35,141 nt of DNA from Cyanophora paradoxa CCMP329 (GCA_004431415.1 QPMI01000405.1:1-35141); one strand, 5' to 3'; numbered from the stretch's first letter, positions 12,300 through 35,141 are shown. Notes: generated by a model from the letters alone, not told the origin. Numbers and translations: made by a program.

Positions 12300-13492
12300 T
12301 ATGTATTACCGTAGTACCTACTACCGTAGTACTAGGCTACTATTAGTAGTAAACGCTGGTGCCACAGTGCCACTGGGCCAGATCTCTGGTGGCCGTCGCC
12401 GACTTTGCCAAGTTGCACGTGGGATTCTCACGCAAGTTAAGATCTACTGCAGTAGAAGGCCTCGCCGAGTCGCGCGGCTCCCGGAGTCCGAGGCTCGCGC
12501 CGCGGGCCCGCGGCGCCCGGCGGCAAGCTCTAGATCTGCAAATTTCCGAGTTCGGCTGCGGCGTTTTAGATCTCAGAGTTTAGATCTTCTCCAGCGTGTA
12601 CGTAACGATGGCGGCCGTATTGGCTAGCGGCTCCACTGCAAGTGCGTGAATTCGCGCCCGCACTGCGGCGCGTGCGGTCGTCCGACGTTGACGTTCAACG
12701 GCTGTCGCGCCTCGAGATCGTATTCGCGTATACGTAGCGTGTCGTATTTACGCATGCGCACGAGCTGATCATAATTTTCGACCCCCATTGCGCAGCCTAC
12801 CCCGTCAACTGCTACTCGCAGACAGGATGCGCGGGCAGCGCAATGTCGTTCGGGAGTGGAGTATCGAGCGTCAACTGCAGCGGTAGACTGTGCGCCAAGA
12901 ACACATGCAGGGATCTCAGCGGAGCGAAATCCGTCATGTTCAACGGCAGCTGCACGAACCTCTCACTCGACGCCGAGACACAGGCGAGCACCCGATGATC
13001 CGCCGCGGGGCGGGGCGGGGCGGCGCCGGCGCGGGCGCCGGCTCAGCCAGCCGCGGCCGGCCCGTCCACGCGCGCGCGGAGCCGGGCCGGGCCGGCCGCG
13101 GGCATCATGCATATATATGAGGGCCAACAATGGGCCAAACGCGAAAAGTCAACCCCGAGAGCTCGAGACTCGGAAGTGACGCTTGGATTGCGGAGGTTCT
13201 TATAACCTCCGGGTCACAGCTGGGGGGTACCGTAGACGAGGCTGGTGATCACCATGATCGCGACGATCGCGATGACGATTCCGATCACGACGATCGCGAA
13301 AACGAGACGATCGCGACCATTTTCGATCGCGATTTCGGGGAGGGGGTCCATTTTGGGCCGGGGTAGAGAAAATAAATGCGAAAAGGCCGAAAAGTGCGTT
13401 TTTCACGCGTGAAATCGATCGAAAACGAGGGTTCGAATCCCGGGTCCGGATTTGGACTTGGGCAAAATCTCGAGTCAAAATGGGAGAAAAAT

Positions 13493-13558
13493 GGGACCTG
13501 GGACTTGGGACTTGGGACTTGGGACTTGGGACTTGGGACTTGGGACTTGGGAAGAGTT
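13493..13558 (+). repeat. Telomere-like heptamer array 1: GGGACCT + (GGGACTT)7 + GGGAAGAGTT
   Basis: Seven perfect GGGACTT units at 13500-13548, read directly from the sequence. Confidence 0.97.
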
Positions 13559-13609
13559 GGAATCAGAGTCTAGACTCAAAAGCGGGGAAATTTTCGGACG
13601 GGGAGAAAA

Positions 13610-13909
13610 ATGTCAGGCAATCTCTATTACGATTTCCCCTTTGAGTTGCATATGGCATTCGAGAGGCTGCGCGAGTTCTGGCGCTGGCACCTCACAGGAC
13701 ATGACATCCCCGACGTAACACCAGAGCCCAACTTACAGGGCGTGCTTGAAGTCATCCGTCAATATCCGCGTCGATTCAATGAATGGATTGAGTTCCACGC
13801 AACGAACCGTTTCCAGAGTCTCCCCGAGGCCATACGCGAAAATTTCGTGAGGCTGGTGGGCCAGGCTACGACAACCCTAACAATCATAGACCACGCCCAG
13901 CTGGCGTGA
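13610..13909 (+). CDS. Viral hypothetical protein (99 aa)
   Basis: Clean ORF with AAAAATG start, preceded by the element's ATTTTCG motif. Globular amino-acid composition. Confidence 0.65.
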   Translation: MSGNLYYDFPFELHMAFERLREFWRWHLTGHDIPDVTPEPNLQGVLEVIRQYPRRFNEWIEFHATNRFQSLPEAIRENFVRLVGQATTTLTIIDHAQLA

Positions 13910-14419
13910 CGCGCGAAGCTCGAAGCGACCGCAGTCTTTTCCGCAGGGAATTGAGAGAGGATAGACGGAGGCTTTCAATGGGGCTCCCGCAGATTGTGAG
14001 GGGGTACAGCCCGGATTACGAGACTTACCAAGAATTGTACGGCTTCGAAAATCCCTTTGAGAGGGTACTACCAGGGTGAGGGGCCAGGGGGGGCCCCTGA
14101 GGGTGTACCCCCGGCCCGAGACTCGACCTTCGGCGGACGCACTCGGGCGATTTCCGTCAGGCCGGCTCCCTTTTTCTGCCTTCGGCCCAACGCTAAATTT
14201 GGCTTTTTTCAGGCCAGTTGGCAACGTTTTCCGTTGCGAACTAGACCGCGAAAAAAATCGCCCACAAAACCGCGGTCCGCCGCCATTTTGGCTCACTCTT
14301 GAAACGGGTTCGCCGCCTTCTCTCAGCCCAAGGAATCCCCGCCTCTCCGAATTTTCACAAGTCCGCTCTCTCAGTCACCTCACGTTTTGCCTTTGCTGAT
14401 CTCTCTTCCCTTTGCGCAG

Positions 14420-15474
14420 ATGTCGATTCCCTCTGAGCTTGTCGAGGACCTTGCCAAGGCCCGTGAGATGTGGGCTAAGTCCCGCGATTGGCCTACCCGT
14501 GAAATGGAGAAGCGTGCCCGCAAGCTGGGGTACCTCTACCAAGCTCACAGCGGAGAAGGCTTCCATACCATCAACCTCAACTTTGTATCCACCCTTCTGC
14601 CCAAGTCCAAGCAACCCAAGCCCGAGCCCAAGCCCGAGCCCGTCGACGTGCCCCCCGTCCCCGGCTGGGTCAAGACTCCCACTGGCTGGGGCGACCCCAA
14701 GCTTTTCGCCGAGTCTGCCGCCGAGACGCTCGCCTGGGCCTATCCCCCTCAAGTCTTCACGAATTTCCCCCTCCGTCATCGTCGTCATCTGCCCCTCAGC
14801 CCGTCGCCGAGCCCGCTCCCGAGCCAGTCGATGACGCCGAGTCCGAGGCCTCTGACGCCGAGTCTGACATCAACGACTTTATCGACTTTGACGTGCCGAT
14901 TCCATACGACTCTGAGTCCTCTTCCGACTCTGAAGGCGACAACGAAAACCCGACTCGCAAGCGCCGCATTATCAAGACCAAGTCAATCGTCAAGAAGAAG
15001 TTCATGGAGACCACGTCATTCACCGACAACTCCGAGCGAGTCAAGAATCCCGCCAAGGAACACGAAAAAGACTTGAAGATCGGCGCTGGCATTGCCCGTT
15101 CTCGCGTCACGTCACACTTCAGCAAGCGCCTGACTCAGCACGTCAAGACCATTGAGAAGCGCATCATCGCCAAGCGCGAAATGGCCGAACTCCGGCGCAA
15201 GTTGCGTCACGAGCGCCTTCTTCGTCGCGAGATGACGCTGGCCAAGATTGCCGAGCGCAAGAAGAAGGAGGCAGCGGAACTTAGGGCGCGCGTCGAGGCT
15301 CAGCAGCGGCGCGAGGCAGAGGCGGCAGCGGCCTTGGCGGCGCAGCGCGAGCAGGAGCGGCAGGACTTAGTGCAGGCAGCGCAGGCCCTTCCCCGCATTC
15401 CCCTTAAGTCCGCGCCCGAGGCCCCGATTGACTTGGTTTCCGATGACGATGATTCTGACTTTGAGATGCTGTAA
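14420..15474 (+). CDS. Viral hypothetical nuclear protein (acidic tract, NLS-like RKRR, coiled coil, C-terminal SIM-like motif); one frameshift near 14770
   Basis: MSIPSELVEDLAKAREMW... (frame of ORF 14387) joins ...DAESDINDFIDFDVPIPYDSESSSDSEGDNENPTRKRR...APIDLVSDDDDSDFEML (frame of ORF 14893) at a C-run around 14767-14771. Consistent codon bias across both parts. Confidence 0.7.
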
Positions 15475-15545
15475 ATAGTATTGCGTCATTCCATTGTACA
15501 TACTTGTAAAAATTGGCCGACTATTCAGTTATGACTTGGCGCGAT

Positions 15546-15607
15546 CCTGGGACTTGGGACTTGGGACTTGGGACTTGGGACTTGGGACTTGGGACTTGGG
15601 AAGAGTT
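15546..15607 (+). repeat. Telomere-like heptamer array 2: CCT + (GGGACTT)7 + GGGAAGAGTT
   Basis: Seven perfect units at 15549-15597 with the same immediate flanks as array 1. Confidence 0.97.
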
Positions 15608-15887
15608 AGACTCAGGGTCTGGGCCCAGACTTTCTCTGGATCTGAGAGTTTGCCGTGCCAAGTCCCTAACCACCGGGCAGACTTAGAAAGGGGTACGGAA
15701 ATTTGGATACGACGTTTCTGGTGACATTCCAGGTGAGATTTCAAGCGAGGTAGAGTCTGAACTGGTGTACGACTTGTAGCATGATACTGGACATGAAAGC
15801 TCACGAGAGTATGCAACCGAAAAAGGATGTGAAGAGGGGTAGGAGTATTCGTGCGAGATGTCGAGAGAAGGAGGGTACGAGATGGGA

Positions 15888-15945
15888 TACGAGTAAAAAA
15901 GACTACGAGTAAAAAAGAGTACGAGGGGTGGTAGGAGTAAAAAAG
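15888..15945 (+). repeat. Short tandem repeats TACGAGTAAAAAAGA(C/G) in a purine-rich non-coding spacer
   Basis: Two 16-bp units at 15888-15919, a partial TACGAG at 15920 and GAGTAAAAAAG at 15935. Confidence 0.8.
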
Positions 15946-16020
15946 TCGGTAGAAAAACTCACCTGACTTGTCTGACAAATTTCTGATCCTGGAGAAAGTC
16001 TGGGCCGGGACCTGGGTTTC

Positions 16021-16068
16021 AACTCTTCCCAAGTCCCAAGTCCCAAGTCCCAAGTCCCAAGTCCCAGG
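16021..16068 (-). repeat. Telomere-like heptamer array 3 (inverted): CCT + (GGGACTT)5 + GGGAAGAGTT
   Basis: Five AAGTCCC units at 16031-16065 on the + strand, flanked by AACTCTTCCC and AGG. Confidence 0.97.
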
Positions 16069-16089
16069 TTTTTCTGAACCTAGGGCAAA

Positions 16090-16455
16090 ATGGCCCTGCT
16101 CCGGTGCACCGACTCGCAAGACGTCGCCTACAACGTCCTGGTCAACTCGGACGTACCCCCGAGTGCCTTGGAGTTTCCCTGGAGAGTGGACAGGGACAGG
16201 GTGAGCAAGACGTTTGGAGGGCGCAAGCACTACCTCTCCCAACTGATCCTCGGGAAGTCGCCACGTGGACGCTACGTGGAACACATCAACGGCAACCCGC
16301 TGGACTACAGGAGGGAGAACCTGCGCTGGGCATCAATGTCGGATATTCGCAAGAAGAGGAGGGGGTACGCCAATTTACAGGAGAAGAGCGAGGAGATTCG
16401 GGAGATGATGGAGGCGGCACAGGCGCTAATGCAGCTTAGCCAGTCTAGACGCTAG
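16090..16455 (+). CDS. HNH endonuclease-fold protein (HNH_3-like), possibly catalytically degenerate
   Basis: YLSQLILG...YVEHINGNPLDYRRENLRW matches the phage/NCLDV pattern xxHRxxxG...VDHINGxxLDNRxxNLR. Start context TTTTTCTGAACCTAGGGCAAAATG. Confidence 0.8.
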   Translation: MALLRCTDSQDVAYNVLVNSDVPPSALEFPWRVDRDRVSKTFGGRKHYLSQLILGKSPRGRYVEHINGNPLDYRRENLRWASMSDIRKKRRGYANLQEKSEEIREMMEAAQALMQLSQSRR

Positions 16456-17257
16456 TGGTGTGAATCTTGGTGTCGTACTCGCGACCAACCGTTTCCCAGG
16501 CCACGTAAACTTCGGCTCCGGCGCCTGGCGCTGTCGAGTTGGTAGTCGCAGTCGTGTAGTCCGCCTCTGCCTCAATTAGTTCGGCCATGAGGGTAGAGCC
16601 CACGACCATTCCAGAGGTAGGCATTCCGGCGATGTTGTTGTACAATTTGAAAGTGAATTTCGTGAAGAGGAGCCGGGGCCAGACCTGGGTACGGGGATTC
16701 GAGGCGCCGTATGAATAATCGGTACCCGAGGCGCCGCCCGTGGTGGCATTCGTCATCATCTCCTTTGCGGTCATCTTCCAGAGGTTGTACATCTCAAAGG
16801 GAACGGCCTGCGTGGTCTTGTGTGTGGCATCGATGAGGGCGCCATCTAAATGCGTTTTGATGTTCGGATTCGCACCATTCCCGAATTTGCGAGTGAGGGC
16901 GGTGTTAGCGGTGAACTTGAGTTCGAGCACGCGAATGGCGGGCCGATCAGGCACAGAGGGCTCTATCTTTTTCAGGAGGCCCGAGAGCCAGAGCGCCTCC
17001 GCCTCATCCGCGCTCACGCCCGAGTCGATGTCAAAGTACACGTACACGGAGCAGGAGGCGGGATTCTCGAAATCGTTGGAGGTGACGCGCAACATGACGG
17101 GATTCTGGACCCTCACGGTGAGCGGGGTGGCGTAGTTTCCGTCCCACTCCACCTTGTCCGTCCCTGCGTTGGCCACGTTCCCAGCGTTGCCGTAGAAATC
17201 GGGGACGATCGAGCCGGCAGACACGGTCTTCACGATGGTGGCCGAGGTGGTCGGCAT
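16445..17257 (-). CDS. Viral protein of unknown function, probably structural (270 aa); paralog of 17281-17961
   Basis: Intact ORF rich in T/G/N and beta-strand-like segments. Shares QNPV, SGLxKK, LExKF, NPR...PR..FT.F.F and AEL.E blocks with the adjacent gene. Confidence 0.75.
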   Translation of the reverse strand: MPTTSATIVKTVSAGSIVPDFYGNAGNVANAGTDKVEWDGNYATPLTVRVQNPVMLRVTSNDFENPASCSVYVYFDIDSGVSADEAEALWLSGLLKKIEPSVPDRPAIRVLELKFTANTALTRKFGNGANPNIKTHLDGALIDATHKTTQAVPFEMYNLWKMTAKEMMTNATTGGASGTDYSYGASNPRTQVWPRLLFTKFTFKLYNNIAGMPTSGMVVGSTLMAELIEAEADYTTATTNSTAPGAGAEVYVAWETVGREYDTKIHTTSV

Positions 17258-17280
17258 TTTGCGACCTCAAATGAGAAAGA

Positions 17281-17961
17281 TTATCCGTGAAAGAGGGTGA
17301 TGTCGCCACCGATGTTCATGACGCGGGCCCCAGGCACAGAGTCAGCGTCGGTGCCGTACGCGTAGGAAATCGAGCACTCACGCAGCTCCGCGCAGAGGCT
17401 GGCGCCCGTGCTGAAGTGGGGCTGGTCGGCGGCGTAGGAGAGGGGGAAGACCTGGAACCTGAAAAAGGTGAAGGGGAAGCGGGGTAGAGTCGAGCCGCGT
17501 GGGTTGCCGCCCGTGTAGAGGGCCCCCAGGGTCGCGGGACTTGGATTGAATTTCGTGAAGAGCACGTCGCCCTTGAGCGTACCCCTCATCTGGTAAGTTC
17601 CCGTACCCGGAAGATTCGAAGAACTGGGGTACCGGTTCACGGTGGGGCCGTACCCCGTCTCCCTGAACTTGACCTCGAGACAGCGCAAGACGTTGGCAGT
17701 GGCCGTGGCAGGTGCCACCTTTTTCACGAGTCCTGATTCGTGCAGCAGCTCGATAACCTCTGCGCTGAGGCTCAGAGGGTCGAAGAAGAGCTGGTAGGAA
17801 TAAATCTTGGGCGTGGCGTAGGCGTTCTGAACGACCTGAATCACGACGGGATTCTGCAGAAAGACGTCGACGTAACTGCCGGAGGGTATGCGTGCGAAAT
17901 CCTTGGTGTTGTTGCCAACGTCAAGTGAGCCGCTGAGGGTCTGGTACCAGTTGGAAGTCAT
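17281..17961 (-). CDS. Viral protein of unknown function, probably structural (226 aa); paralog of 16445-17257
   Basis: Intact ORF with the same conserved blocks as its neighbour. Confidence 0.75.
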   Translation of the reverse strand: MTSNWYQTLSGSLDVGNNTKDFARIPSGSYVDVFLQNPVVIQVVQNAYATPKIYSYQLFFDPLSLSAEVIELLHESGLVKKVAPATATANVLRCLEVKFRETGYGPTVNRYPSSSNLPGTGTYQMRGTLKGDVLFTKFNPSPATLGALYTGGNPRGSTLPRFPFTFFRFQVFPLSYAADQPHFSTGASLCAELRECSISYAYGTDADSVPGARVMNIGGDITLFHG

Positions 17962-18000
17962 TTACCCCGGGGCAGATATTTTTTCGGATCGTAGAGGAAA

Positions 18001-20135
18001 ATGCCCCGCTTCGTATTCGTGAAAAAGCAGGTGGTGCAGGCTCCGCAGTATGGCGTGGAGCCGATCTCGCTGACTGTGGGCAGGCCCCAGGTGCGATCGG
18101 GCTCCGTGCTCAACAACGGGAACAGTACGTACGGCTTTCAGCTGAACTGGGTCGCGGTCACCAACGCCGTCAAGTACAAGGTGTACAGGGCGACCAGCAT
18201 CAACGGCCCCTGGGATCTCGTGGCCACGGTGAATGCGCCAACCGTCACCTACACGGACTCTCCCTTTAGTTTGGGGGCCCAGCGACTCTACCGCGTGGCG
18301 GCGGTTCGCGAACAGGGCAGCAGCAGCACGGGCTCTGATGGCAAAGCCCCGCCCACAACCTACGCACAGTCGCTTCTCTACACCCACGAGGGTGCCATGA
18401 GCAATTACATTCTCTTCCAAGGCATAGGCGGCTTCAGCCCGCAGATCGAAGCCTACACCACGCTCACGACCGCCACGGCCCAGACCTACGGCGATTTTAT
18501 TGCCGGGGCGGCCCCGCGTCTTCGGGCTTCCCGAAACCCGCCATAGTCGTCACAATCAACTGGGTGGCCATGGAGGGCGCGGACTCGATTCGAATTTACA
18601 GGAACGGTACGCCAATCGGATTTGCGAGCAGTGCCCTGTCTACCTCGTACATTGACGATAGCACTGCTCTTACGTGGGGCACGGAATACTCTTACCAGGT
18701 GGCCGGCATCGTGGGCGGTGTCGAATACGACAAGTCCGATCCGCTCCTGGTCTGGACTATGCCAAACGCCCCACGAACGTGACGGCATCAGCACCCAACG
18801 ACCAGCAGCAGCCTGTCAGCCTCAGCTGGACTGCGTCCACGGGAGCGACGGGATACAAGATTTACAGAGACGGGGCCTACCTCACAGACTCCGCGACCAA
18901 CTCCTACAGCGACACGACCACCGTCTGGGGTACAGGGTACGAGTACCAGATCTCCGCGACGAACACGGGAGGGGAGGGGCCGAAGAGTATTGCGGCGTAC
19001 GTCACCACGGACCCGGGGCGCCCACTGGGCTCACTGCAACCCCCGCGGCGGGGCAGCACAGCCTGTTGTGCTCGAGTGGTCGGTGCCGGTGACGGGCGTC
19101 ACCGTCTCCTACAACATCTACAGGGGTGGCGTGTTCCTTGCCAGCGACACGAGCAGCCCCTTTTCGGACACAACGACCGTTTACGGAACCACTTACACTT
19201 ACACCATCAAGGGCGTCAACCAGATCGGCGAGGAAGGCCCTCAGTCCTCGTCTGCCAGTGCAACAACTGCAAACGCTCCTGTTTTGGGTACATTCTCCTA
19301 CACCGGGGCCGACCAGACTTTCGTAGTACCAACGGGGACTGTGGCTGTGCGTGTCATCGTATGGGCGGCCGGGGTGGAGGCGGAGAACGCGCAGGTACGG
19401 GGGTCCGTGGAGGCGCGGGTGCTTGCGTAGTTGGTACATTGGCTGTGTCCTCGGGGAGACGCTCATCCTTGTTGTTGGATGCGGCGGCCCAAAGGGTGTA
19501 TCGGGGACTGCCACTGCTACCGTCTACGGAGGTGGTGGAAGGGGCTGGAGCCATAGCGTCGATCCGGAGTACAAAAACGGCGCCGGTGGTGGTCGTTCTG
19601 CAATTCAGCGCGTTGCAGGGACCGACTTGGTTGTTGCAGGGGCCGGAGGTGGGGGTACATGTGATTCGAATGGCGGCGGGGGAGTAGGCGGGGGTTGACC
19701 GGTGGTGCGGCTGGGTTGGTTGGAGTAACCGGAGAGATACCGGCTCAAGGAGGCACCCAAACCGCTGGCGGAGCCGGTGTTGTGGCCTCAGGGGCCAGGC
19801 CCAGCAACCCGGGAACTTTGCGCCAAGGTGGAGAGACTGGGCCTGATTCAAGCGGCTACAGGTTCGGTGGTGGTGGTGGTGGTGGTTACTTCGGTGGAGG
19901 CTCTGGGTCCAGCAGGAGCGGAGTGTCAGAGAACCCAATAGCAAGAATGTTTGGAGGTGGCGGTGGCTCGAGCTACATAGGAAACTTGACGGATGCTACG
20001 GTGTATCCTGGGTCCGGCCAGGTGGCAGGAAATAGCGGAGACGCTCACTACGCAGCAGGCATTGGTAGGGGCGGCAACGGTGGCTCGTCTTTCAGCGACG
20101 GTGGCAACGGTCGAATTGTGATACTCGCGGTGTAG
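18001..20135 (+). CDS. Fibre/adhesin-like protein: several fibronectin type III repeats + C-terminal glycine-rich domain (frameshifted; could be two genes)
   Basis: FN3 signatures LNWVAVTNAVKYKVYRA, IRIYRNG...YSYQVAG, LSWTASTGATGYKIYRDG...YEYQISATNTGGEGP and LEWSVP...YNIYRGG...YTIKGVNQIGEEGP. These are followed by FSYTGADQTFVVPTG...WAAG and GGGGGGYFGGGSG...GGGGGSSY...GGNGRIVI, typical of phage/ALK-type Gly-rich domains. Confidence 0.82.
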
Positions 20136-20155
20136 TTATTCCTAGTTGTTCCAGA

Positions 20156-21220
20156 TCAGCTCGCCAGTGCCGCTACCTGGTCTTTGAGAGTTTGAACTTC
20201 TTGTGAAAGTTCCTGAATTGCCTTCAACGACAGGGAAATGAGCCTGTCGTAGTTTACCCCGAGAAATCCATCCGCGTTCTCGAAAACGAGACTCGGGAAG
20301 ACGCCTTGGACTTCCTGTGCGATGAGACCGTAATCCGTTTTCGAACCCCCGAGGATGTGTTCTTCCAGGTGAACGACACGGGATTCAGCTGCAGCAGAAG
20401 AGGGAGAATGCCCGACATGCTCGCGACATTTTCTTTCAGGCGGCTATCGCTCGACGAGTTTGTCAGGTATCCTTGAGCATCCGAATAAACGGCTCGGTTT
20501 CCATCGCCCGTGAGCGTCGAGACGATGAGCCGACCCGTGATGCCAACGCCGACGGTTCCGCACAGCAGTCGTTCGGTGCCGTTGTTTCTCAAGGATAGAC
20601 CAGAGCTGACGCTGACGCTTCCGCTATCAACGATTGAAGTGTTTGCTATGCTTAGGCCATTAGTAGGGCCTTCGATTGCCGAGGTAAATAGAGTACCTGT
20701 AACACCAACGCCAAGAGTCCCACAGAGGAGTCTATCGTTTTCGTTGTACTTTATAGCTACGCCTGAACCACCGCCATTTATGTACGGTGACGTTCCGGTA
20801 ATTTGCAGCTTATCGTCCAATGTAACGATGCCCGCCAAGTTTGAAGCCCCGCTCACCCTAAGCCCCCCACCACGTTTGCTCCGCCTCCTTGCACATACAG
20901 AGCCGCATTCCCCTCCCCGTTCACAGTCCCATTAAAGGTCACCTGATTCGTGGTGTACCCGCTCCCGTCCCAGGCCCCGTTCGTGACGGTGAGCCTCTGC
21001 GTCCTCACGCGCCCCGGCACGGCCGACCCGCCCTCCCGCGTGCGCATCTTGTCGCAGCGCAGCTCGCCGACGCGGACGAGGTCGGCCTCGGAAAAGGGGA
21101 CGGCCGTGGCGTTGTAGGGGCCTCGGTGGCCTGGTTTCCGAGGGTGGTCTCCTTAATCGTGTGATCGCCCTTGTGATTCACGCTGGCAGCATAGGTAAAT
21201 AGAGGGACAGCGACCGACAT
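20156..21220 (-). CDS. Tail-fibre-like protein with C-terminal intramolecular chaperone (Peptidase S74 domain); frameshifted
   Basis: SSDSRLKENV...LLQLNPVSFTWK, then in a shifted frame YGLIAQEVQGVFPSLV...GVNYDRLISLSLKAIQEL, the canonical S74 motif set. The upstream region has RLLCGTxGVGxTG repeats. Confidence 0.85.
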
Positions 21221-21244
21221 TTTTGGATTGCATCAGAAAATCGA

Positions 21245-26339: not shown

Positions 26340-26364
26340 TTTATCCGCGAGAGAGAAAAATTAA

Positions 26365-26841: not shown

Positions 26842-26861
26842 TTAAGGGGGCCTGCGAAAAT

Positions 26862-27310
26862 CTATTTAGCAAAGGCCCAGAGGCCGAAGTTCTTGACGAT
26901 GAAGGCGTTGTTCTTCTTGGTGGCGCCCGTGATGTCGGTGAAGCGCACGCGCAGCTCCTGGAACTTGTCGTACGCGACGTAGTTCGGGCGCACGGCCATG
27001 GGCACCTCGAACCAGTAGAGGATGGTGTTCTCGAGGCCGTCGTGGCCCCACGTCGGATCACGACCTTGTTGATGCACGTGTTGACGTTCGAGATGGTCGT
27101 GACGTTCAAGTCGGGCACGTCCATCAGCAGAACGTTGACGGTTTTCGCGGCGGTGGGGTCCGGAATCGCGGTCGTGTCCAGCTCCAGGTAGACGCCCTTG
27201 ATCTGCAGCGTGTCGATGTCGGCGGGGATCTGGTTCAGCCTGAGGCGCCAGAAGCCCTCGGAATCCTGCGTCTCTCCGTTCGACTGGACGTAGAGGTTGA
27301 CGCAGGACAT
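26862..27310 (-). CDS. Putative minor capsid (penton-like single jelly-roll) protein; one frameshift near 27050
   Basis: About 150 aa of alternating beta-strand pattern ending in FQELRVRFTDITG, resembling the L.I.L.D..G motif of PLV/virophage-type pentons. Confidence 0.5.
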
Positions 27311-27333
27311 TATTTAGGAAGGGGCCTGAGAAA

Positions 27334-27522
27334 TTATGCCTTCCTCAGGCCGTTGAGGAGGTAGGGCCCCACGAAGTAGTAGCCCGCGAACTGCGCGGCG
27401 AGGATCCGCACGAGGTAGTAGCGCGCGGGCGACATGTAGGCGACCGCGCCGAGGGTCAGCAGGCTGCCCAGGTAGCGGGAATCGCTGGTGATATCATCGA
27501 GGCTCGGGAGCATGGACGACAT
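27334..27522 (-). CDS. Small membrane protein (62 aa)
   Basis: Two hydrophobic segments (YLGSLLTLGAVAYM; YYLVRILAAQFAGYYFVGPYLL). Motif-bearing spacer upstream. Confidence 0.65.
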   Translation of the reverse strand: MSSMLPSLDDITSDSRYLGSLLTLGAVAYMSPARYYLVRILAAQFAGYYFVGPYLLNGLRKA

Positions 27523-27544
27523 TGTTAAGGGCCCATTCAGAAAT

Positions 27545-27894
27545 TTACTTGGGCATGAAGAAATTCCTGACGCGCTCTCCCTCCTCGTGCAGCGCCCACT
27601 GCAGCCGGTCGATGACGGCGGCCATCACGGGCGGGCTCGCGGCGGGGTTCTTCGCGTACGCCCGGGCGTCCTCTGCCATCTGGGGTGGTACTGCTCGACG
27701 CGCTTGGCGTAGCTCGCGATGGCGCGGCGGGTGCACCGATCCAGGTCAGCCGCCATTTCCGCCGGTGCCTTCGGCTGCTGCTGCTTCTTTCGCGCGTAAG
27801 TCCTAAGAAGCCAAGGGTAGGCCGCGGTGCTGCTGCTGGAGTTGCTGGGCGCTGGAGCCTCTGCGCTGGGGGCTGGTGTCGCGGGAGTCTCCAT
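27545..27894 (-). CDS. Viral hypothetical protein; one frameshift near 27685
   Basis: METPATPAPS...KRVEQYHP joins QMAEDARAYAK...VRNFFMPK. Bounded by AT-rich spacers. Confidence 0.6.
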
Positions 27895-28174
27895 TTCCCA
27901 TGTTCTCTAGAAAAAAACGGGTACCGGTTTGCGTCATCTGAATGTCGACGTGGTGCGGCCCTATGTTCTGCGTGCTCTCGCGCCTCTGCTGCTCCGGTGG
28001 GGGTTCGGGCTCGGGCTGTCCGCGGCGGACGACCCTAAGGGCCGCCGCCTTCAGGGCGCCCAGCACTGTGTTGGGGCCGACGCGCTCCGTGCCGCCCAGC
28101 AGCTCCGAGACCAGGAAGAGCGCGCCGCAGACGACGGTGATGATGTCCGAGTGGGTGCATTCCCCCTGGAACAT
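27803..28174 (-). CDS. Small membrane protein (true stop probably near 27934)
   Basis: N-terminal hydrophobic helix IITVVCGALFLVSELLG followed by PNTVLG. The ORF tail overlaps the next gene and its upstream motif, which suggests a frameshift. Confidence 0.55.
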   Translation of the reverse strand: MFQGECTHSDIITVVCGALFLVSELLGGTERVGPNTVLGALKAAALRVVRRGQPEPEPPPEQQRRESTQNIGPHHVDIQMTQTGTRFFLENMGNGDSRDTSPQRRGSSAQQLQQQHRGLPLAS

Positions 28175-28196
28175 TTTCGCGGGCCCGTCAGATTTA

Positions 28197-30225
28197 TTAT
28201 CCGCTACCCCTTCCCCTTCCGCGCCCCTTGCCTTTGCCGCGCCCTCGGCCCCTGGCCCTCAGGTCGCCGATTTCCGCGGCCTGCGGCGCGAAGCGGGGAT
28301 CGTCCGCCTGGCCGGCGTCCGCCTGGAAAATCGTGAAGAGGTACCCGTCCGTGTTGTTGTCGGTGTTGTTCGTGTTTCGCGCGTGCGACCACTCTTTCAG
28401 TAAATCGCGCCTCTGCTTGTCGGGCAGCGTCTTTGAGAGGTACTCCTGCAGCTTGCTCGCGTAATTTTCCTCTGGGATCAGCGACGCAAGGACGGTGGGC
28501 GGATCTTTCCCCATGCCTATCTTCTCTTCCGTCAGCATGCGCTCGAGCTCTGCGATTTCCACCATCGTATCGATGCTCGGTTGAGGCCCTGCCTCTGCCC
28601 TCTTCTGGTCTACGAGGCGCTGCCCCGCCGCCGTGAATTTCGCGGACAGAATTTGGTGCAGCCGCTCGTACACCGTCGTGGTGCTCGGCTCCTTCTCCTT
28701 CAGCAGCACCACCCAGTCGTAATTCGCCCACAGCACCTGCAAATTCGATATGTGATCGATCGTCACCAGCACGTGGGCGTGCAGCGCGCCGTCCGTCGGC
28801 CCCACCTCCACGCCCCCTTGCACGCGAATTCCGATGATTGCGTTGGCGTACGTGTCGTCCTTGTACTTGCCGTTCTCTTCCTTCATATTGAAGCGTATGA
28901 ACTTGTAGAATTCTGCATCCGAGAGCACCTCTGCGAGGCTGTCGCGCAGCGCCGCCGCCTCGAATTCTCGCGCCTCTCCCAGGCGCTTGTGGGTGTTGAA
29001 GAGCACCCAGTAGCGCGACTGGCGCGCCTGTCGTATGTCGTACCGCGTGCTTCCGTCGGGATTCTTTTTGTTGAGGATGAAGACCGACCGCCCCGTCTCG
29101 CTGATTTCCGTGATCACCTTCTCGAGCGCCTCCAGCCCGTTTGCCTGCGCCGCCTGCAGTCCCGTTTTCGCCTTCTCTATGTTCTGCTTTACCTCTTGCG
29201 CGTCCGCGAAGGTTGCCATTAAATCTTCCATGCTCGGCGCCACGATTTTCGCCTTTCTGATTTTCGACTGCGCAGAGTTGGGCTCGATGACGGACGATCC
29301 GAAGTCAGCGGCCGTATCCTTTGCCTTTTTCGTGGTCTTTGGCTTCGGCCCGCCGAGCACGCTCTCGACCATGTGGTCGCGCGTCTGCTTGGAGACGGTG
29401 GCCGTGTCGCCCCTCTTTCGCCTCTGCAGGCCCAAGATCACGAGCAGGCCCTTGTTGCCGAGCAGCGTGACGCACTTCTGGCAGAGCCACGAGTTTCTGG
29501 GCGACACCGTGGGCACCTGCGCCGGCTTCTTGTCCTTGATGAGGGGTACGGCTCCTGGCCCTTTTTCTTTCCCTTGCCGTTTTGCTTGGCCGCCCACGCG
29601 TTTGCCTTCTCTATGACCGCGACGTACTCTTCGTACACGGCATCCTTCCTCGCCTGCGCTGCCTCCCTCGCGGCGATTTTCTCTGGCGTGTTGGCCCCCT
29701 TGGCGCTCGGCACGGGCGTGGCTTCGTACATGAGGCGAAGGCAGCGGTAGCAGATTGGCGGCGATTTCTGCGCGCTCTGGTACGTGCGCGGTATGGCGCG
29801 CAGTCGCTCCTCGGGGAGTTTATCGTACTCGATTTCGCTGTGGATGCTCCAGAGGGTCGCGGGCTCGTGGTATGATTTATCGAGCAGCGATGGGAGCATC
29901 TGAACTTCTTTGGTGGCCGAGAGCTTGATGTAATCGGATATGCTCTTCTGCTGCTGGAATATGCCGTCCTCGCCCTGAACCAGCACGTATCGCTTCGGAA
30001 TCTCAACGACGGGCGTCTCGAGCTCGTCCACGCCGGTATCGGGCGCGTTTCCCTTTGCCTTTCCCTTTCCCTTCCCCTTGCCCTTGCCCTTCGGCTTAGG
30101 CTCCGGCTCCTCTTCCTCTTCCTCCTCTTCTTCCTCCGACTCGGAGGACGGGACGTGGGCTCCTCTTCCTCTGACTCGCTCGAGCTCTCTGGCTTCTTCT
30201 TGCGGCCTCGGCGCTTCGGAGGCAT
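28197..30225 (-). CDS. Long HUH endonuclease (rolling-circle Rep-like) with N-terminal charged region and CxxC pairs; frameshifted
   Basis: Motif I-like SRYWVLFNTHK, motif II GVEVGPTDGALHAHVLVTIDH, motif III-like LQEYLSK. CYRC and CQKC upstream. ORFs 29611-30225, 29438-30031 and 28197-29597 chain together. Confidence 0.8.
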
Positions 30226-30246
30226 TTATTGGACACGAGAAAAAAT

Positions 30247-31087
30247 TTACACGAGCTTTACAGCGCCCGTCTCGAGGGCCTCTACCGTCTTCGTAATGTA
30301 CAGCTGCAGCAGATCCTTAAGGTTGCTCTGCGGCAGCAATTTTACGTCTACGTGCATCTGCCTGGCGGTTTCTCGCTTCCTGTAGCCCGTCTCCTTGCCC
30401 GTCCACTGCATGCCGAGGGCGTCCTTTCTCCGTATCGGCCGCACCGCCGTCTTCTGGTACTCCTCCCCGAACCAGTCGTCCTTGTAGAAATTCGGCAGGC
30501 CGCCCTGCCCTCCGTTTGCATGAACTTGATGAGGAAATCCGACGCCTTCTTGCCGTCGAATTGCACGCGCGAGTAGTGCACCAGCGTGAGCAGGATGTGC
30601 GCGTGGAGCCGCCCCGACCGCGGCCCGTACTCGATGCCGATGTTCGCGTTGCCCTTCTCCACGTGCGTGTCGTACTGGTCGGACTTGAAATCGAAGCCCT
30701 TGGGGTTCGCCTTGTCGGGGTACACCCCATCTTTATGCACCGCGCCAGCTGCCTGTCGTCGTAGAAGAGGGCCTCCAGCCCCCTGTGAAACGCGTCCTGC
30801 ACCTTGGAGCCCTCTCCCCTGCTCCGCGGCTTGTAGTTGGTCTGGATGGTGATCATGAAATTCGACTCGCGCTGCGGCCGATCCTCCCCGTTCAGTTTCC
30901 TCACGGGCGCCGCGTCCAGCACCTTCTGGAACCACGTCTTGTCGGGCGCCAGCACCTTGTCGTTGATGTTGCCCACCACGATGTGCGTCTCTACCCGGGA
31001 GCGGCCGGAGGCGTCCATGCGGAGGTGAGGGTTCGGTGCCCGGGCTTGCCTGTTTGCTGCCACGCCCCTCGCGATGAGGTTGAGCAT
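30247..31087 (-). CDS. HUH endonuclease (rolling-circle Rep-like); frameshifted
   Basis: Motif I SNFMITIQTN, motif II GIEYGPRSGRLHAHILLTLVH, motif III LLQLYITK, spread over three chained frames. Confidence 0.85.
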
Positions 31088-31160
31088 GTCAGACCAAGGC
31101 CTAGAAAATTTTCCGAGGCTGGGGTGAGCTTCCACGTGGGCCCCGGGGTACGTCCGCACC

Positions 31161-31201
31161 TCACCTGAGCATCACCTGAGCCTCACATGAATCACCTGAG
31201 C
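31161..31201 (+). repeat. Iteron-like direct repeats TCACCTGAGC (3 perfect + 1 degenerate)
   Basis: Copies at 31161, 31172 and 31192, plus TCACATGAA at 31183, in the divergent spacer between the HUH gene and VLTF3. Confidence 0.8.
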
Positions 31202-31317
31202 AACGCCTTCTGCAACAAGTGCTTCCTCACTTGCAAGTGGGACCCACTCTCCTCTGAGAAGCCAACCTGTTGGTTCTGCAGGGGAATAGCTCAGCTGCAG
31301 TACGAGGACTCAGAGGA

Positions 31318-32146
31318 ATGGCAGACTCTAACGAAATCGATCTCCTCCTCCGAAACTTCGAGCAGATCCAGCGCTACGGCGCCATCCTTCACGACGAGGG
31401 GGACCCAGACTTCGACACTCCGGCACCGTACCCCGCCGCCGCCGCCGCCATCGCCAACTCCTACCTCGGGGCCGGAGAGCGCCCCCGCAAGCGCAACCGC
31501 CGCACCCAAGGCCCCCAAGGCGAAGCCGCTGTCCCCTGCGGAAATTGCAGCTCTACCGCCCTCGTTGGTGTTCACCTGGATGGGGATCTGGTTTGCCAAG
31601 GCTGCGGTCTGGTCCTGGATCTTTATTATCCGGACCATCAACCCTGGCTGTCAGCGAGCTCCACAGCAACTACCTGCGCAAGTACCACGTTTCCGAGCGA
31701 CTTAAGCAGCACTGCCTGGAGGATTCTCCGGTACCCGAGGACGTGCTGGCAGCTATTGCGAGGCGCATGGCGGGAAGGAGTGGAGCAAAGACAATATCCG
31801 CCAAGTTCTCCGGGCTCTGAAGCAGCAGAAGTACATCGAGCGCTGGGCGCAGATCAAGTGGCGCATCACGGGCGAGCGCCCGCCTCCGATGAGCGCGGAG
31901 GACATGGACCGGGTGCAGGAGATGTTCGCCCTGGTGGAGGTCCCCTTCAGCATGTTCAAGTCGCAGGGCAGGAAGAACATGCTCAACTACAATTACGTTT
32001 TCAGGCAGATTTTCGTGCTGCTGGATTTGCCCCAGCACCTCCCCTTTTTCCCCTTGCTCAAGAGCAGGCAGAAACTCTCGGAGTTAGATTCGATTTGGAA
32101 CAGGATCTGCGAGTACAACGACTGGCATTTCTTTCCTACTCTTTAG
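31318..32146 (+). CDS. Viral late transcription factor 3 (VLTF3, poxvirus A2-like); frameshifted
   Basis: N-terminal Zn ribbon CGNC...DGDLVCQGCGLV, then YLRKYHVSERL and LKQQKYIERWAQI, and the hallmark C-terminus RKNMLNYNYVFRQIFVLLD...FPLLKSRQKLSELDSIWNRICEYNDWHFFPT. Confidence 0.93.
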
Positions 32147-32491
32147 CTACTCTTTAGTGATCGCGGCGGCCTTCCGCTCGAGCGCCTGCTTGATTCCGAA
32201 GCTGGCGCTGGTAGCCTTGATTAGCATGTTCGTCTGCCCGTGTGTGAATCCGAGGATGAACATAATTCCGCCGGTGGGGTCGTCGTCGAAGAACTTGAGG
32301 GTGAGCACGTATTTCGAGAGCAGGCCGAGGGAGAGGCCGTTGACGGCGACTTGCGCGGCGAGCTCGGCTGCGTGGCCCGCCCTGTTTTCGCCTTCGTGCG
32401 AGGAGAAGGCGGCGTCGATGAGGGAGCCGGATGCCAGGCCGAGGGCGTACTGCACGATAGCCTGGGAGAGCCCTAGGAGCACCTTTGACAT
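32147..32491 (-). CDS. Putative virion membrane/envelope protein (114 aa)
   Basis: Three hydrophobic segments with E...Q and GG..F...F..Q..L..K patterns reminiscent of small NCLDV membrane proteins. Confidence 0.6.
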   Translation of the reverse strand: MSKVLLGLSQAIVQYALGLASGSLIDAAFSSHEGENRAGHAAELAAQVAVNGLSLGLLSKYVLTLKFFDDDPTGGIMFILGFTHGQTNMLIKATSASFGIKQALERKAAAITKE

Positions 32492-32526
32492 TTTCCTAGC
32501 GCCTCGGAAATTTTTAAGGGGCGCGC

Positions 32527-32876
32527 CTAGGCGTCGGAGTCCTCGTCCTCGGTCTCCTCTGCCTCCTCCTCCGAGCCCGATTCCGAGGTCGCAAAATCGT
32601 CCGGGTCGCGCACGTAAATCACCCTGTCTCCCTCTTCGTCTGTCATCTCCTCCGAGCTGGTGTCCTCACTGCCCAGCGACTCGGCCGCGGCCTCGTCCGC
32701 CGCCTCCGCGGTCAGGCGCTCCCAGTTAATTCCAGCGCGTCGCAGATCCTCTCCAGGGCGCTGCTGACCTCGCCGTCGTTAAAGGGCGAGGAGGGGTCGA
32801 GGCTCGCCTCCAGGAGGCAGTCGTAAGCGATGGACTCGACGCGGAAGACGGAGGCGATGTGGGCGCTGGGCGACAT
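32527..32876 (-). CDS. Acidic hypothetical protein; one frameshift (absent from the ORF track)
   Basis: MSPSAHIASVFRVESIAYDCLLEASLDP... continues in a shifted frame as INWERLTAEAADE...EEEAEETEDEDSDA-stop. Upstream TTTTTTCTGA motif. Confidence 0.55.
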
Positions 32877-32902
32877 GCTTACGCACGAAGCCTCAGAAAA
32901 AA

Positions 32903-33972
32903 TCAGGCGAGGCCGCGGTGCTTCCTGAAATTATCTATCATGCCGAGGAGCGTCTTGTCCACCGTGCCGTCGTCCGGACCCACGAGATTTTCTCCGTTGA
33001 CGGTTTCGCCCTCCCAGTACTCCTTGGATCCGATGCGGAAGGGGGCGGCTCCTCGGCCTTGTAGACGTACAAAACGTCCAGAGGGTTCGTAGAGTTGTTG
33101 GAAGAATCGATGATAAGGCAGTGGTTATCCTGCGTGTACTTATCGAGCAGGTAGTAGAAGGCGCGCTGGGAGATGATGTCGCCCCACTCCTTTGCGAGGG
33201 CCTCGCGCTGCATCGCCTGCGAGCACTTGAAAATGACAGCCAGATCAGTATTGGAGCGCAGGACGGGATTGATGCCCTTGGCATACTGCGTCGTGATAAG
33301 GGTCATGATTTTGTAGTGGCGCCCCGCCACGAAGAGCTCGTTGAGGGCCTCGTCGTACCGCAGCCGAGCGTCGGAAATCACGTCGTCGAGCAGCACGAAA
33401 AATCGCGGGTCGACGGGATCCTCCTTTCCCGCGAGCACGTCTTCGGACTTGTTGTGCTGCATGATCGCCTGCTGCCTCCTGAATAAATGGAAGAGCACGC
33501 CCGGGTTGTACTTGGGCCAGATGAAGCGCTGCGGGATGTACTGCTTCCAGTAGCCGTTCAGGCGATCGGTCTGGCTGATCACGATACCCCCCGGGAAGGT
33601 GCCGGAGAGGTTGAACATGAGATCGCGGAGGAAGAAGGACTTGCCCGTGCGCCGCTTGCCGACGCAGACGACCGTGGCGTCGGACTTGACGGTGTTCACG
33701 TCGAACCACTTGAGCTCGGGCAGGCAGGCCATGCGCTCGATGCCTCCCGTCTTCGAGTTGTCGAGGAAGGCGTTGACCTGCTCGGGCGTGAGCTGCTGGC
33801 CGTCCTCTGTCATGCCCATGGCGCAGCTGGCGCCGGCGGCGGGGGCCGTGCCCGAGCCCGTGCCGGTGGCCTGGCCGGCGGGGGCGGGGGCCGCGGGCGC
33901 TGCGCCTGCGGGCTGGGCGGGCTGGGGCTTGGCCGCCTTCGGCTTCTTCGGCTTCTTGGGGTCCTTGGCCAT
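32903..33972 (-). CDS. A32-like (FtsK-HerA family) genome packaging ATPase; one C-terminal frameshift
   Basis: Walker A VGKRRTGKS, Walker B FVLLDDV, GRHY arginine motif, LITTQY, LRSNTD, and in the shifted frame PFRIGSKEYW, typical of NCLDV/PLV A32 ATPases. Confidence 0.95.
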
Positions 33973-33986
33973 TTTACCCCCTTCAT

Positions 33987-34198
33987 TCAGATTTTTCGAG
34001 GGTGCTCCAGGTCCTCGTAGTCGATACCTAGCTCCAGGTCCTCGTAGTCGATACCTAGCAGCGCGCAGCCCTCTCTAATGCAGCTTTCGAAATCGCTCAG
34101 AATGTCTGGAACGCTTTGGCTGTAGTCTGAGCTGAAGAACTCATCTCGGTAATGTCGATGCACCATCCGGATGAATTTTTCCGCCAGGCCTCTGCCAT
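33987..34198 (-). CDS. Small acidic hypothetical protein with internal 9-aa duplication
   Basis: GLAEKFIRMVHRHYRDEFF...LGIDYEDLELGIDYEDLEHPRKI. Perfect 27-bp tandem duplication at 34004-34057. The ATG at 34198 follows a copy of the ATPase upstream sequence and needs one frameshift. Confidence 0.45.
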
Positions 34199-34230
34199 CC
34201 CCTTCATTCAGATTTTCTTGCGACCCTGGG

Positions 34231-34706
34231 ATGAAGATCCTCGGCGTGGATGTGGGGGTCATCAATTTCGCATGGTGCCTCATCGAATTCGATCCGCAGA
34301 CAAAGGAATCCCAGATTCTCGACTGGCAGAAGATCGCCCTCTTCCCGTCTGCGCGCTGCTGTGGCCGCCTGGTTGCGCGCCTGGTGGAGGTTACTCGCGG
34401 CCATAGCGCCTTCGGCCTTCCCGACCAGATCGCGATCGAGGGCCAGAGGACGGGAATCAATCGCTGCATCGAGTGCACGCTCCACGCCCTGCTGTACGGG
34501 CGTGCGCGGATCGTGAGCCGCGCGCCATCAAGCACTTCTTCAAGATCTCGAACCCGAGCTACAAGGAGCGCAAGCGGGGCGCCGTGGACAAGTGCCGCGA
34601 CCTCGTACCCGCCGAGCTCGCCGACATCGCGGATCGAAACGGCAAGCTCGACGACCTCTGCGACGCCTACTTAATCGCCCTCTACGCCGCGCTCAATCCG
34701 TTGTGA
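34231..34706 (+). CDS. RuvC-like Holliday junction resolvase (poxvirus A22-like); one frameshift near 34520
   Basis: MKILGVDVGVINFAWC, IAIEGQ, YKERKRGAV and KLDDLCDAYLIA: all RuvC/A22 catalytic motifs are present. Confidence 0.92.
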
Positions 34707-34736
34707 TCCATTGTGATTTCTAGGCCCCGCCGCCAG

Positions 34737-34898
34737 ATGGGATCCTCGTGCCGCAAGCCCAGGTCCCTCTGCTGCGAAATCTGCCGCCTGCCCCAGACCA
34801 AGCGCGGCTGGGTGCTCAAGGCGGGCGTCTACGTCTGCTGCCCCCGGTGCGCCGTCCGCTACTACGCACTTTTTTCTGAAGGCTGTCTACACCCGTAG
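34737..34898 (+). CDS. Small zinc-finger protein
   Basis: CEIC...CPRC pair in a 53-aa ORF. Upstream ATTTCTAG motif. Confidence 0.5.
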   Translation: MGSSCRKPRSLCCEICRLPQTKRGWVLKAGVYVCCPRCAVRYYALFSEGCLHP

Positions 34899-34907
34899 CT
34901 AGATCCC

Positions 34908-35101
34908 ATGGAGCACGCCACTACTGCTTCAAGTGCCGCTCCAAACCAAGCTCGCCAACGTCGAGGTGCGTACCAGCAAGAACAACCGCAGGTGGCCGTC
35001 GGCTCCTGCACGAATGCAGCGGCCGCGTCTCGCGCTTCATGCGCCGGGTCCTCGAGGAGGGGGCCGGGAGACCAGCCCTCCGCCGCAGCGCCCGCAGGTG
35101 A
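34908..35101 (+). CDS. DUF5679-like small zinc-ribbon protein; several frameshifts
   Basis: Reconstructed YCFKCRSK.KLANVEVRTSKNNRR.AVGSC.ECSGRVSRFM matches the YCxKC...KNxR...GxCxxCGxxxxR pattern. About four single-base corrections are needed, and the end is uncertain. Confidence 0.6.
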
Positions 35102-35141
35102 CCGACGCCGCTGGCCCGGCCGCCGGCTCGAGCAGGCACCG

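Follow-up and report, generated by a model that had tools for sequence, protein, structure and literature searches.

A multi-copy mriyavirus-related element, very probably integrated in the nuclear genome of Cyanophora paradoxa

The window is the entire 35,141-nt stretch analysed here. Its left part carries a host gene that contains an AAA_16 domain and is divided between many short frames; to judge from the sequence this gene probably has introns. The GC content is 72% over this gene (positions 1-8,000), compared with 60% over the viral part. Two TIR-bounded repeats, at ~10.87-11.14 kb and 12.06-12.30 kb, have a high depth in the reads. From ~13,111 to the window end at 35,141 the DNA is very likely to be an integrated, multi-copy element in the nuclear genome of Cyanophora paradoxa, of which the left 22 kb is visible and the right end lies outside the window. 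An earlier note on this DNA had described compact viral genes beside a host gene and host repeats. This is borne out by gene spans that occupy ~97% of 16,090-35,141, a rough figure in that the spans were chosen by hand and a gene in broken frames was taken as a single span. Many of the viral genes in this copy are broken by frameshifts.

The left end of the element is placed at a TA run (13,111-13,118), the probable host-virus junction, where a single-copy short-read contig ends. In run X1 this contig covers 12,272-13,140 at a depth of 72 with no mismatch and stops 30 bases past 13,110; by 31-mer logic this would mark the start, just after 13,110, of a repeat that another locus also has. Among the short-read pieces listed the junction is crossed in one of four runs, by 30 bases where the standard of the tool is 31, and positions 13,141-13,177 are covered by none. 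The depth of the short-read contigs steps from single-copy to ~20-25-fold at the TA run near 13,111. The terminal region that follows (13,119-13,490) is non-coding and multi-copy by short-read depth; a contig at 13,178-13,388 has a depth of 1,544 in X1 (single-copy 72-84), and one at 13,178-13,409 a depth of 2,488 in X7 (single-copy 92-101). Loose contig ends at 13,472 are present in all four runs, and continue toward the first of the repeat arrays described below. A perfect 8-bp hairpin lies inside the terminal region at 13,191-13,211, seen in both sequence and fold, and at the element end the TA run is followed by TG. These contigs place the beginning of the element near 13,111-13,119, rather than at 13,190 as the earlier note had it, and uphold its view of a virus integrated in a protist chromosome, in that the single-copy flank runs into the multi-copy end; of the latent or integrated stage implied there, it is the integrated one that they support. 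Insertion may be targeted to TA runs, on the strength of this one junction.

Three tandem arrays of a single 7-bp unit, two direct and one inverted, are located within 13,483-16,074. The second and third are inverted arms of 78 nt on either side of a 355-nt spacer, and the region is a candidate origin or end-recognition region. A gene model on another contig (P0328) extends into the second array. A 7-bp array was found in none of 162 comparison loci; one locus, L107, has a 5-bp array at its contig end. In the same stretch lie an ORF of 99 aa on the plus strand (13,610-13,909), preceded by the viral upstream motif and with no Pfam or PHROG match, and one or two frameshift-broken plus-strand ORFs (14,420-15,474) that are acidic and coiled-coil-like and match no family. 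They are followed by an HNH endonuclease (16,090-16,455, plus strand; PF13392, E 3e-7, and PHROG HNH families) and by two paralogous minus-strand ORFs of 270 and 226 aa (16,445-17,961), which are 29% identical over 202 aa (E 4e-12). Their EukProt clusters have 15 and 14 members respectively. The single-sequence fold of the 270-aa ORF has a pLDDT of 29, and all its atlas leads score below 0.9.

A frameshifted, glycine-rich protein with FN3 repeats (18,001-20,135, plus strand; fn3 E 2e-5, ALK_LTK_GRD E 7e-4), of which P0355 is a longer copy, is likely to lie on the virion surface. On the minus strand are a frameshifted phage-like fibre with a C-terminal S74 chaperone (20,136-21,220; PF13884 E 6e-6, PHROG tail-fibre families to E 2e-17) and a fibre with phage-tail-like repeats (21,245-22,105; PHROG tail families E 1e-11), the latter with a weak H_lectin match (E 0.006) that is below the cutoff. 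A coiled-coil-like coding region, long and divided between many frame pieces (21,976-26,339, minus strand), matches no family and is followed by two small minus-strand ORFs (26,365-27,310), one of which, of 158 aa, is related to 20 EukProt sequences and to one JGI homologue at 44%. The two small ORFs, which do not match the gamadvirus mCP-like family, were considered as minor capsid proteins, the coiled-coil region as a member of a gamadvirus family, and the last ORF of the window (34,908-35,141, plus strand), which is cut by the window end so that the element continues, as ssb. None of these assignments was supported, the best hhalign probability being 10% or less in each case.

Two predicted HUH endonucleases lie side by side on the minus strand. 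The long one (28,197-30,225), about 670 aa in pieces, has a Cys-rich N-terminal part and a C-terminal HUH domain; the short one (30,247-31,087) is frameshifted and was identified from P0279 (E 2e-19) and P0280 (E 7e-9) as tblastn queries. Alignments show motifs I, II (HUH) and III (YxxK) to be intact in both. The model of the long protein has a pLDDT of 86.9, with atlas matches to Rep families at 0.90; in BFVD the top match has E 2e-9, followed by many Reps at E above 0.003. The best HUH-type PDB match is weak (the ISDra2 Y1 transposase, E 0.005), ferredoxin-like proteins tie at Z 5.3-6.7 so that transposase and Rep are not separable by fold, and an HUH profile searched against PDB sequences gave nothing useful. 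The short HUH has matches in 20 of 256 loci, and a short HUH gene followed by a long one is the layout of six of 14 HUH-centred loci. In a tree the long HUH and gamadvirus HUH_long do not form a group, so orthology is unsupported; the window protein is also much smaller than the 1,591-1,857 aa of the gamadvirus ones, and its N-terminal part matches no gamadvirus protein.

The right part of the visible element contains the core genes. VLTF3 (31,318-32,146, plus strand) is frameshifted and has an N-terminal zinc ribbon, with PF04947 matched at 31,706-32,143 (E 2e-23). It is opposed by a 114-aa protein (32,147-32,491, minus strand) of a family that is conserved between the ATPase and VLTF3 in gamadviruses (HMM E 2e-10, hhalign 95%), is present in 30 of 162 loci and is probably Mriya_50, a label we infer. 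The A32-like packaging ATPase (32,903-33,972, minus strand; PF04665 E 6e-5) is frameshifted once, within a homopolymer run near 33,041; either side of this break is 100% identical to P0122, an intact copy. The order of ATPase, 114-aa gene and opposed VLTF3 is that of a comparison locus, L001. A frameshifted RuvC-like resolvase in two frames follows (34,231-34,706, plus strand; Ydc2 E 3e-5, Pox_A22 E 1e-4, gamadvirus-family HMM E 8e-8). Profile searches and conserved motifs have identified the whole of the combination proposed earlier, i.e. VLTF3, A32 ATPase, RuvC and HUH endonucleases.

An AT run followed by C occurs upstream of 18 of 23 viral starts, including those of the ORFs at 13,610 and 16,090, compared with 39 of 434 other ATGs; the motif was picked after inspection and the viral starts were picked by hand. 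No Pfam match to an integrase, recombinase or transposase, and no match to a polymerase or helicase, was found in 150/155 frames of the window, and genes for a capsid, helicase, polymerase or integrase are absent from the visible 22 kb, as is a double-jelly-roll capsid protein. The absence of a protein-primed polymerase noted earlier therefore holds for the visible 22 kb; the right part of the element lies beyond the window.

The earlier reading overlooked that the element is one of a family. There are most likely ~20-25 similar copies in C. paradoxa nuclear DNA. EukProt contains 25 ATPase sequences from this species, of which 21 are named and lie on 21 different contigs, and nine of the copies read are full length and 96-99% identical. 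The 20-25-fold depth of the terminal region agrees with this count. A marker is present on 48 named contigs and two or more on 19, in 18 of which they fall within 14 gene numbers. On five contigs the gene at 16.4 or 17.3 kb is linked to the ATPase, 12-14 gene numbers away, so the element is repeated as a unit. Variants of the long HUH are 72-79% identical and copies of the 226-aa ORF 84-98%, and the copies form at least two subfamilies. Some have suffered damage (in P0001 a residue of Walker A is altered), and most are probably silenced by CpG methylation.

We are confident that the element belongs to the Mriyaviricetes. In an ATPase tree of 54 rows the window clade joins 30 gamad-type rows with support of 100/100 against 20 giant-virus rows, and a second ATPase tree gives 100/100 with gamad-type rows against nine giant-virus rows; the giant-virus label was assigned from gene content for seven loci and from low score for the rest. 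In a VLTF3 tree of 53 rows the window and 21 gamad-type rows are separated from 31 others at 100/99. The ATPase is 44-54% identical to gamad-type loci compared with 32-35% to giant-virus loci. Both proteins therefore fall outside the giant-virus families and group with Gamadviridae-type sequences, in line with the class assignment of the earlier note, in trees built from references other than Yaraviridae, PLVs and the Zora, VC134 and VC218 groups. The window is sister to all sampled gamad-type rows (ATPase 96/93, and 90/83 under C20; VLTF3 93/8), a position that may result from long-branch attraction, in view of warnings from the trees. VLTF3 argues against the identity of the element as a polinton-like virus or virophage.

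There are likenesses to the Gamadviridae (the Pleurochrysis sp. endemic viruses and NDDVs), namely VLTF3, RuvC, the 114-aa family, the block of ATPase, small gene and opposed VLTF3, an ATPase 52% identical to that of Pleurochrysis endemic virus 2 (PEV2; AUD57306), a short HUH directly followed by a long one, and inverted-repeat structures near the helicase or contig end in two loci, L276 and L278. In contrast to gamadviruses, the window element is a long-branch sister rather than nested, with a much shorter long HUH, a phage-like fibre block, a glaucophyte host and ~20-25 chromosomal copies. The gamadvirus mCP-, VLTF2- and ssb-like families were not matched in the window by HMM or hhalign, in an hhalign run where the 114-aa family (95%) was the sole positive control and the RuvC and VLTF3 target frames were absent from the set. 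Likewise no Gamadviridae-specific protein (PEV_8 to PEV_35, mCP, ssb) was detected in the visible part, where, of VLTF2, PDDEXK, Mriya_1, _48, _50 and _51, only the 114-aa family was matched; the assignment of labels to locus families is our own reading. Among the best 120 of 398 matches to a gamadvirus MCP there was none from Cyanophora, which has no bearing on absence.

Other known elements share some of these features. Polinton-like viruses and endogenous protist virophages also have many dispersed copies and phage-like fibres, but the window element has VLTF3, RuvC and two HUH genes, and lacks pPolB, RVE and YR in the visible part. A subterminal hairpin is a property of IS200/IS605 elements. 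These Y1 transposases and SIRV1 ORF119 are similar in their way of working only, i.e. in a single-tyrosine HUH fold with weak structural matches and the hairpin, whereas the window element is a virus of >22 kb, its matches are no better than those to other ferredoxin-like folds, and its HUH activity is a prediction. Phaglo-G, an NDDV scaffold of Phaeocystis globosa, is likewise of gamadvirus type and comes from an algal assembly; it is described as integrated and as having short tandem repeats on its flanks (10.1101/2022.07.28.501842). It differs in its haptophyte host, and the passages seen of that paper call its origin unclear and describe no multi-copy family. Regions related to Mriyaviricetes and embedded in a Glaucocystophyceae assembly are reported in a preprint seen in part (bioRxiv 10.1101/2025.04.19.649669), and from class and host group these are very probably the same element family. 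The link to a host that had been put forward for this DNA therefore stands but is not new, and integration in this host group is less of a surprise. The passages seen treat such regions as mainly accidental, and do not give copy number, ends, gene anatomy or mechanism. A literature search lying outside bioRxiv supplements and subscription journals found no description of copy number, ends or mechanism for the family, so that the number of copies, the sharp terminus and the deep position look undescribed.

The explanation that we favor overall, with a probability of about 0.6, is a mriyavirus next to the Gamadviridae, present in 20-25 copies through repeated, end-specific insertion by its own HUH endonuclease. 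Following Yutin et al. (PMC11253617), the virus would replicate in the nucleus by HUH-primed rolling circle using a host polymerase, RuvC would resolve the products and the A32 ATPase would package them in a capsid of the double-jelly-roll type, its gene expected to the right of the window. Attachment to the host surface would fall to the products of the fibre, lectin-like and FN3 genes. One or other of the HUH enzymes might nick the element end, at the hairpin and repeat arrays, and join it to TA-rich host DNA in the manner of Y1-type HUH transposases. Such HUH-driven insertion is the leading mechanism, proposed tentatively and at somewhat less than even odds. We are more doubtful of its boldest form, a third, glaucophyte-infecting mriyavirus lineage that uses an HUH endonuclease as integrase to insert whole genomes into TA runs by a defined end. 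It would be both virus and HUH transposon within the giant-virus phylum, and a model alga in culture would contain intact proviruses.

Linear or nicked viral genomes might instead have been joined to host breaks by repair during a persistent nuclear infection. The visible part has no integrase, the two or more subfamilies would fit several waves of infection, and Nucleocytoviricota regions devoid of mobility genes are taken as mainly accidental insertions in the part of the preprint seen (10.1101/2025.04.19.649669). However, random capture should produce fragments more often than ~20-25 copies with the same terminal region and end-to-core gene order, although the end of a linear genome could still explain the common terminus, and we consider such capture possible but rather unlikely. 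A conventional integrase (tyrosine recombinase or RVE) could be encoded in the right part, since the right end is outside the window and the visible part has neither capsid gene nor helicase; with a genome of 35-45 kb some 13-23 kb would extend beyond the window, and the Zora, VC134 and VC218 groups, which are related to mriyaviruses, pair HUH or Mriya48 with RVE or YR. The TG that follows the TA run is like RVE-type ends, which read TG. Against this, mriyaviruses reportedly lack integration genes (10.64898/2026.06.19.733378) and the ATPase adjoins gamadviruses (in trees built without Zora, VC134 and VC218), making this explanation unlikely.

The element might also be composite: a mriyavirus core with a polinton-like virus or a transposon, the fibre-rich left half, nested next to it. 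The host has 366 PLV-type capsid genes (PMC10120064), and a PTR-PTR-H_lectin fibre is known from a C. paradoxa PLV (PMC12220804). Yet on the five other contigs the left genes and the ATPase are 12-14 gene numbers apart, the upstream motif is common to both halves and no PLV capsid or integrase is found in the visible part, so this is very improbable. Least probable of all is a chimeric assembly, in which a co-cultured free virus was joined to the host contig. The many frameshifts, and junction evidence from short reads alone, would be in keeping with this, but in one run the error-free single-copy contig extends from the flank 30 bases into the end common to the copies, diverged copies are present on dozens of contigs, and the terminal depth is within what the copy number explains.

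Of all living relatives of the giant-virus ancestors, mriyaviruses have been proposed to be the closest; yaravirus is their sole isolate. With 20-25 copies in a cultured alga, it is testable whether the HUH enzyme starts rolling-circle replication, and also how viruses of a group said to be devoid of integration genes get into chromosomes. For their part, the glaucophytes gain a defined virus lineage.

Several viral genes lie where the earlier note had placed them, as judged by Pfam and alignment: VLTF3 (31,318-32,146, plus strand; Pfam E 2e-23), an A32 ATPase (32,903-33,972, minus strand; Pfam E 6e-5), a RuvC-like resolvase spread across two frames (Ydc2 E 3e-5, Pox_A22 E 1e-4), and a long (28,197-30,225) and a short (30,247-31,087) HUH gene in tandem on the minus strand. 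The left half of the element contains an HNH nuclease, two paralogous ORFs without assigned function, an FN3/glycine-rich gene and two phage-like fibre genes. The 155 frames of at least 75 aa do not include any that begin before 13,560 or run across the arrays; in the 150 of them searched (five overlapping frames were left out), Pfam gave no match to families of polymerase, helicase, capsid, integrase, recombinase or transposase. There is a perfect 27-bp duplication in the small ORF adjoining the ATPase (34004-34059), and 19-20-bp tandem repeats occur in a Pro/Gly-rich coding stretch (25497-25564).

The ATPase search gave 298 proteins with E values of 1e-10 or better, out of 457 candidates. 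Ten of the 120 matches listed belong to the window's own lineage and 110 are 49-55% identical, including the ATPase cluster of the gamadvirus PEV2. ATPase identity is 44-54% in 71 of the 80 viral loci retained and 32-35% in nine, which are read as giant viruses, judged by gene content in seven. Six reference loci (PEV2, L096, L111, L131, L142 and L150) are named gamadviruses or pieces of gamadvirus contigs in Yutin's table. In the 54-row ATPase tree the window forms a clade with another host copy and two database proteins, P0003 and P0004 (supports 100/99), and this is united with 30 Gamadviridae-like (gamad-type) rows at 100/100. The clade is sister to the gamad-type rows at 96/93, with a long-branch warning; an earlier quick tree did not settle this position, and a mixture model on 30 rows supported it at 90/83. 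The VLTF3 tree agrees (100/99), as does the gamadvirus-like gene order of ATPase, 114-aa family member and opposed VLTF3. The order of short then long HUH is that of 6 of 14 HUH-centred loci. However, the long HUH is under half the size of gamadvirus HUH_long and outside its group in sequence grouping, and the mCP-, VLTF2- and ssb-like gamadvirus families have no match in the window, all of which counts against plain membership of the Gamadviridae. The assignment to Mriyaviricetes made previously is upheld by the grouping of ATPase and VLTF3 with gamad-type rows; because the reference set was without Yaraviridae and PLVs, the element is most safely read as lying within Mriyaviricetes, next to Gamadviridae.

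Relatives of the window lineage occur beyond the EukProt set: P0003 (ENA), P0004 and P0274 (Logan; contigs of 8,181 bp), P0275, P0276 and P0279 (the last two on 4,240-bp contigs) and P0303 (JGI). These are 84-90% identical in the ATPase and 34-39% in the long HUH, so the lineage extends beyond a single genome. Four gamadvirus-type contigs (L257, L258, L260, L261) sit in bacterial MAG bins in GTDB; two are given as gamadviruses by Yutin et al. (PMC11253617). A 133-bp inverted repeat pair at the end of gamadvirus contig L278 (6889-8133) and a long imperfect palindrome in L276 (6167-6342), just ahead of a large ORF that is probably a helicase, are possible origins.

EukProt proteins labelled Cyanophora paradoxa are 96-100% identical to those of the window, and from these source names we infer the host. 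The ATPase has 25 Cyanophora-labelled sequences there (a cluster of 18 and 7 singles); 21 names were seen, on 21 contigs (15 of the 18 being among the matches listed), and the nine sequences read are full length. The ORFs at 16.4, 17.3 and 26.4 kb are represented by 15, 14 and 20 sequences respectively. On lists of ≤15 sequences per cluster, at least 48 contigs bear a marker and at least 19 bear two or more, within 14 gene numbers in 18 of the 19. The window's gene order is kept on all three contigs with three markers, and five contigs join a far-left gene to the ATPase. Full-length copies have 84-99.6% protein identity; as C. paradoxa is described as probably haploid (PMC6704402), they are unlikely to be alleles, and a single copy may still be divided between two contigs. 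At 72-79% identity in the long HUH, proteins P0271-P0273 (the first two with the host label) form another, diverged subfamily within this host. The ATPase frame breaks in a homopolymer, the sequence on each side being 100% identical to an intact copy, and single-copy host stretches are error-free against short-read contigs whereas multi-copy repeats show indels. Frameshifts in the window's viral genes are thus probably consensus errors.

The left flank contains a host gene (300-8000) that we take, from motifs recognized by eye, to be adenylate-cyclase-like and to include AAA and TPR regions; of these, AAA_16 alone gave a score (E 1e-4, which misses the cutoff), and the TPR match was weak. A high-copy host repeat (8390-10020), whose contig depths add up to as much as ~250 times that of single-copy sequence, shows consensus indels relative to reads and no Pfam match, and is possibly a transposon remnant. 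Three short multi-copy repeats lie just left of the virus (10875-11140, 11640-11830, 12059-12302), two having MITE-like terminal inverted repeats.

The integration claimed in the earlier note is borne out by short-read contigs, where single-copy host flank gives way to a multi-copy viral end, the boundary being deduced from one run. Over 8,000-13,490 in four runs, single-copy contigs reach 12,983-13,140 and multi-copy contigs start at 13,178. Terminal multi-copy depth is 1,544 against 72-84 for single copy in run X1, and 2,488 against 92-101 in run X7. This 20-25-fold depth, a rough measure, fits the gene-model count, with no sign of a large free virus pool. An X1 contig (12,272-13,140) has zero mismatches and ends 30 bases past 13,110, the expected stop of a 31-mer contig if the shared repeat begins at 13,111. 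The start of the element is therefore placed there, one base below the bridging standard and with 13,141-13,177 not among the pieces listed. A TA run opens the shared repeat, and the terminal region contains an 8-bp hairpin along with three arrays of a 7-bp unit, of which two make inverted arms. An AT-run motif, picked post hoc, precedes 18 of 23 viral starts versus 39 of 434 other ATGs; its presence upstream of the ORFs at 13,610 and 16,090 ties the element end to the viral core. At least half of the words from 9,000-18,500 are contained in 14 of the 24 runs listed, which have one organism label throughout and may be related cultures, not independent strains.

The virus would replicate in the nucleus by HUH-primed rolling circle, as proposed by Yutin et al. 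(PMC11253617), unproven there too, and its own HUH enzyme would carry out integration. We favor HUH-driven insertion, at a probability of roughly 40%, in view of the defined shared end, the spare HUH gene, the lack of a visible integrase and the report that mriyaviruses are missing integration genes (10.64898/2026.06.19.733378). Two alternatives stay in play at somewhat lower probability: passive capture of the copies and, a little less likely, an integrase encoded in the right part, beyond the window. For the long HUH, 31 proteins were recovered from the 50% library; in the alignment, the motif I region, the His-x-His pair and Tyr-x-x-Lys are all conserved. The predicted domain structure is confident (pLDDT 86.9). 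Among viral structures, its top match is a 793-residue half-entry that carries no name (E 2e-9); below it come weak CRESS-virus Rep matches, and the atlas matches are Rep families at 0.90. ISDra2 TnpA matches weakly (E 0.005), and a Sulfolobus transposase and SIRV1 ORF119 score level with unrelated ferredoxin folds, so that structural support for HUH-driven insertion is weak. In C. paradoxa, genes of viral origin are reportedly enriched among methylated genes, which are mostly silent (PMC12344493), so the element copies are probably quiet.

The proposed link to a host stands but is not new: embedded Mriyaviricetes-related regions have been reported in a Glaucocystophyceae assembly and a Pavlovophyceae genome (10.1101/2025.04.19.649669), in a preprint that may give copy numbers in its figures or supplements. 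Roitman et al. (10.1101/2022.07.28.501842) called haptophyte NDDVs integrated, Phaglo-G being flanked by short tandem repeats. For C. paradoxa, 366 capsid genes are given in the supplement of PMC10120064, and one PTR-PTR-H_lectin fibre is listed from a PLV of this species (PMC12220804). Cyanophora and glaucophytes are absent from the two supplement files accompanying Yutin et al. (PMC11253617), and mriyaviruses go unmentioned in 10.64898/2026.10.13.758929. The element is real, integrated and multi-copy, and most likely a mriyavirus. The searchable literature seems to contain no description of its copy number, defined end or deep branch, and these features make the question of integration testable.
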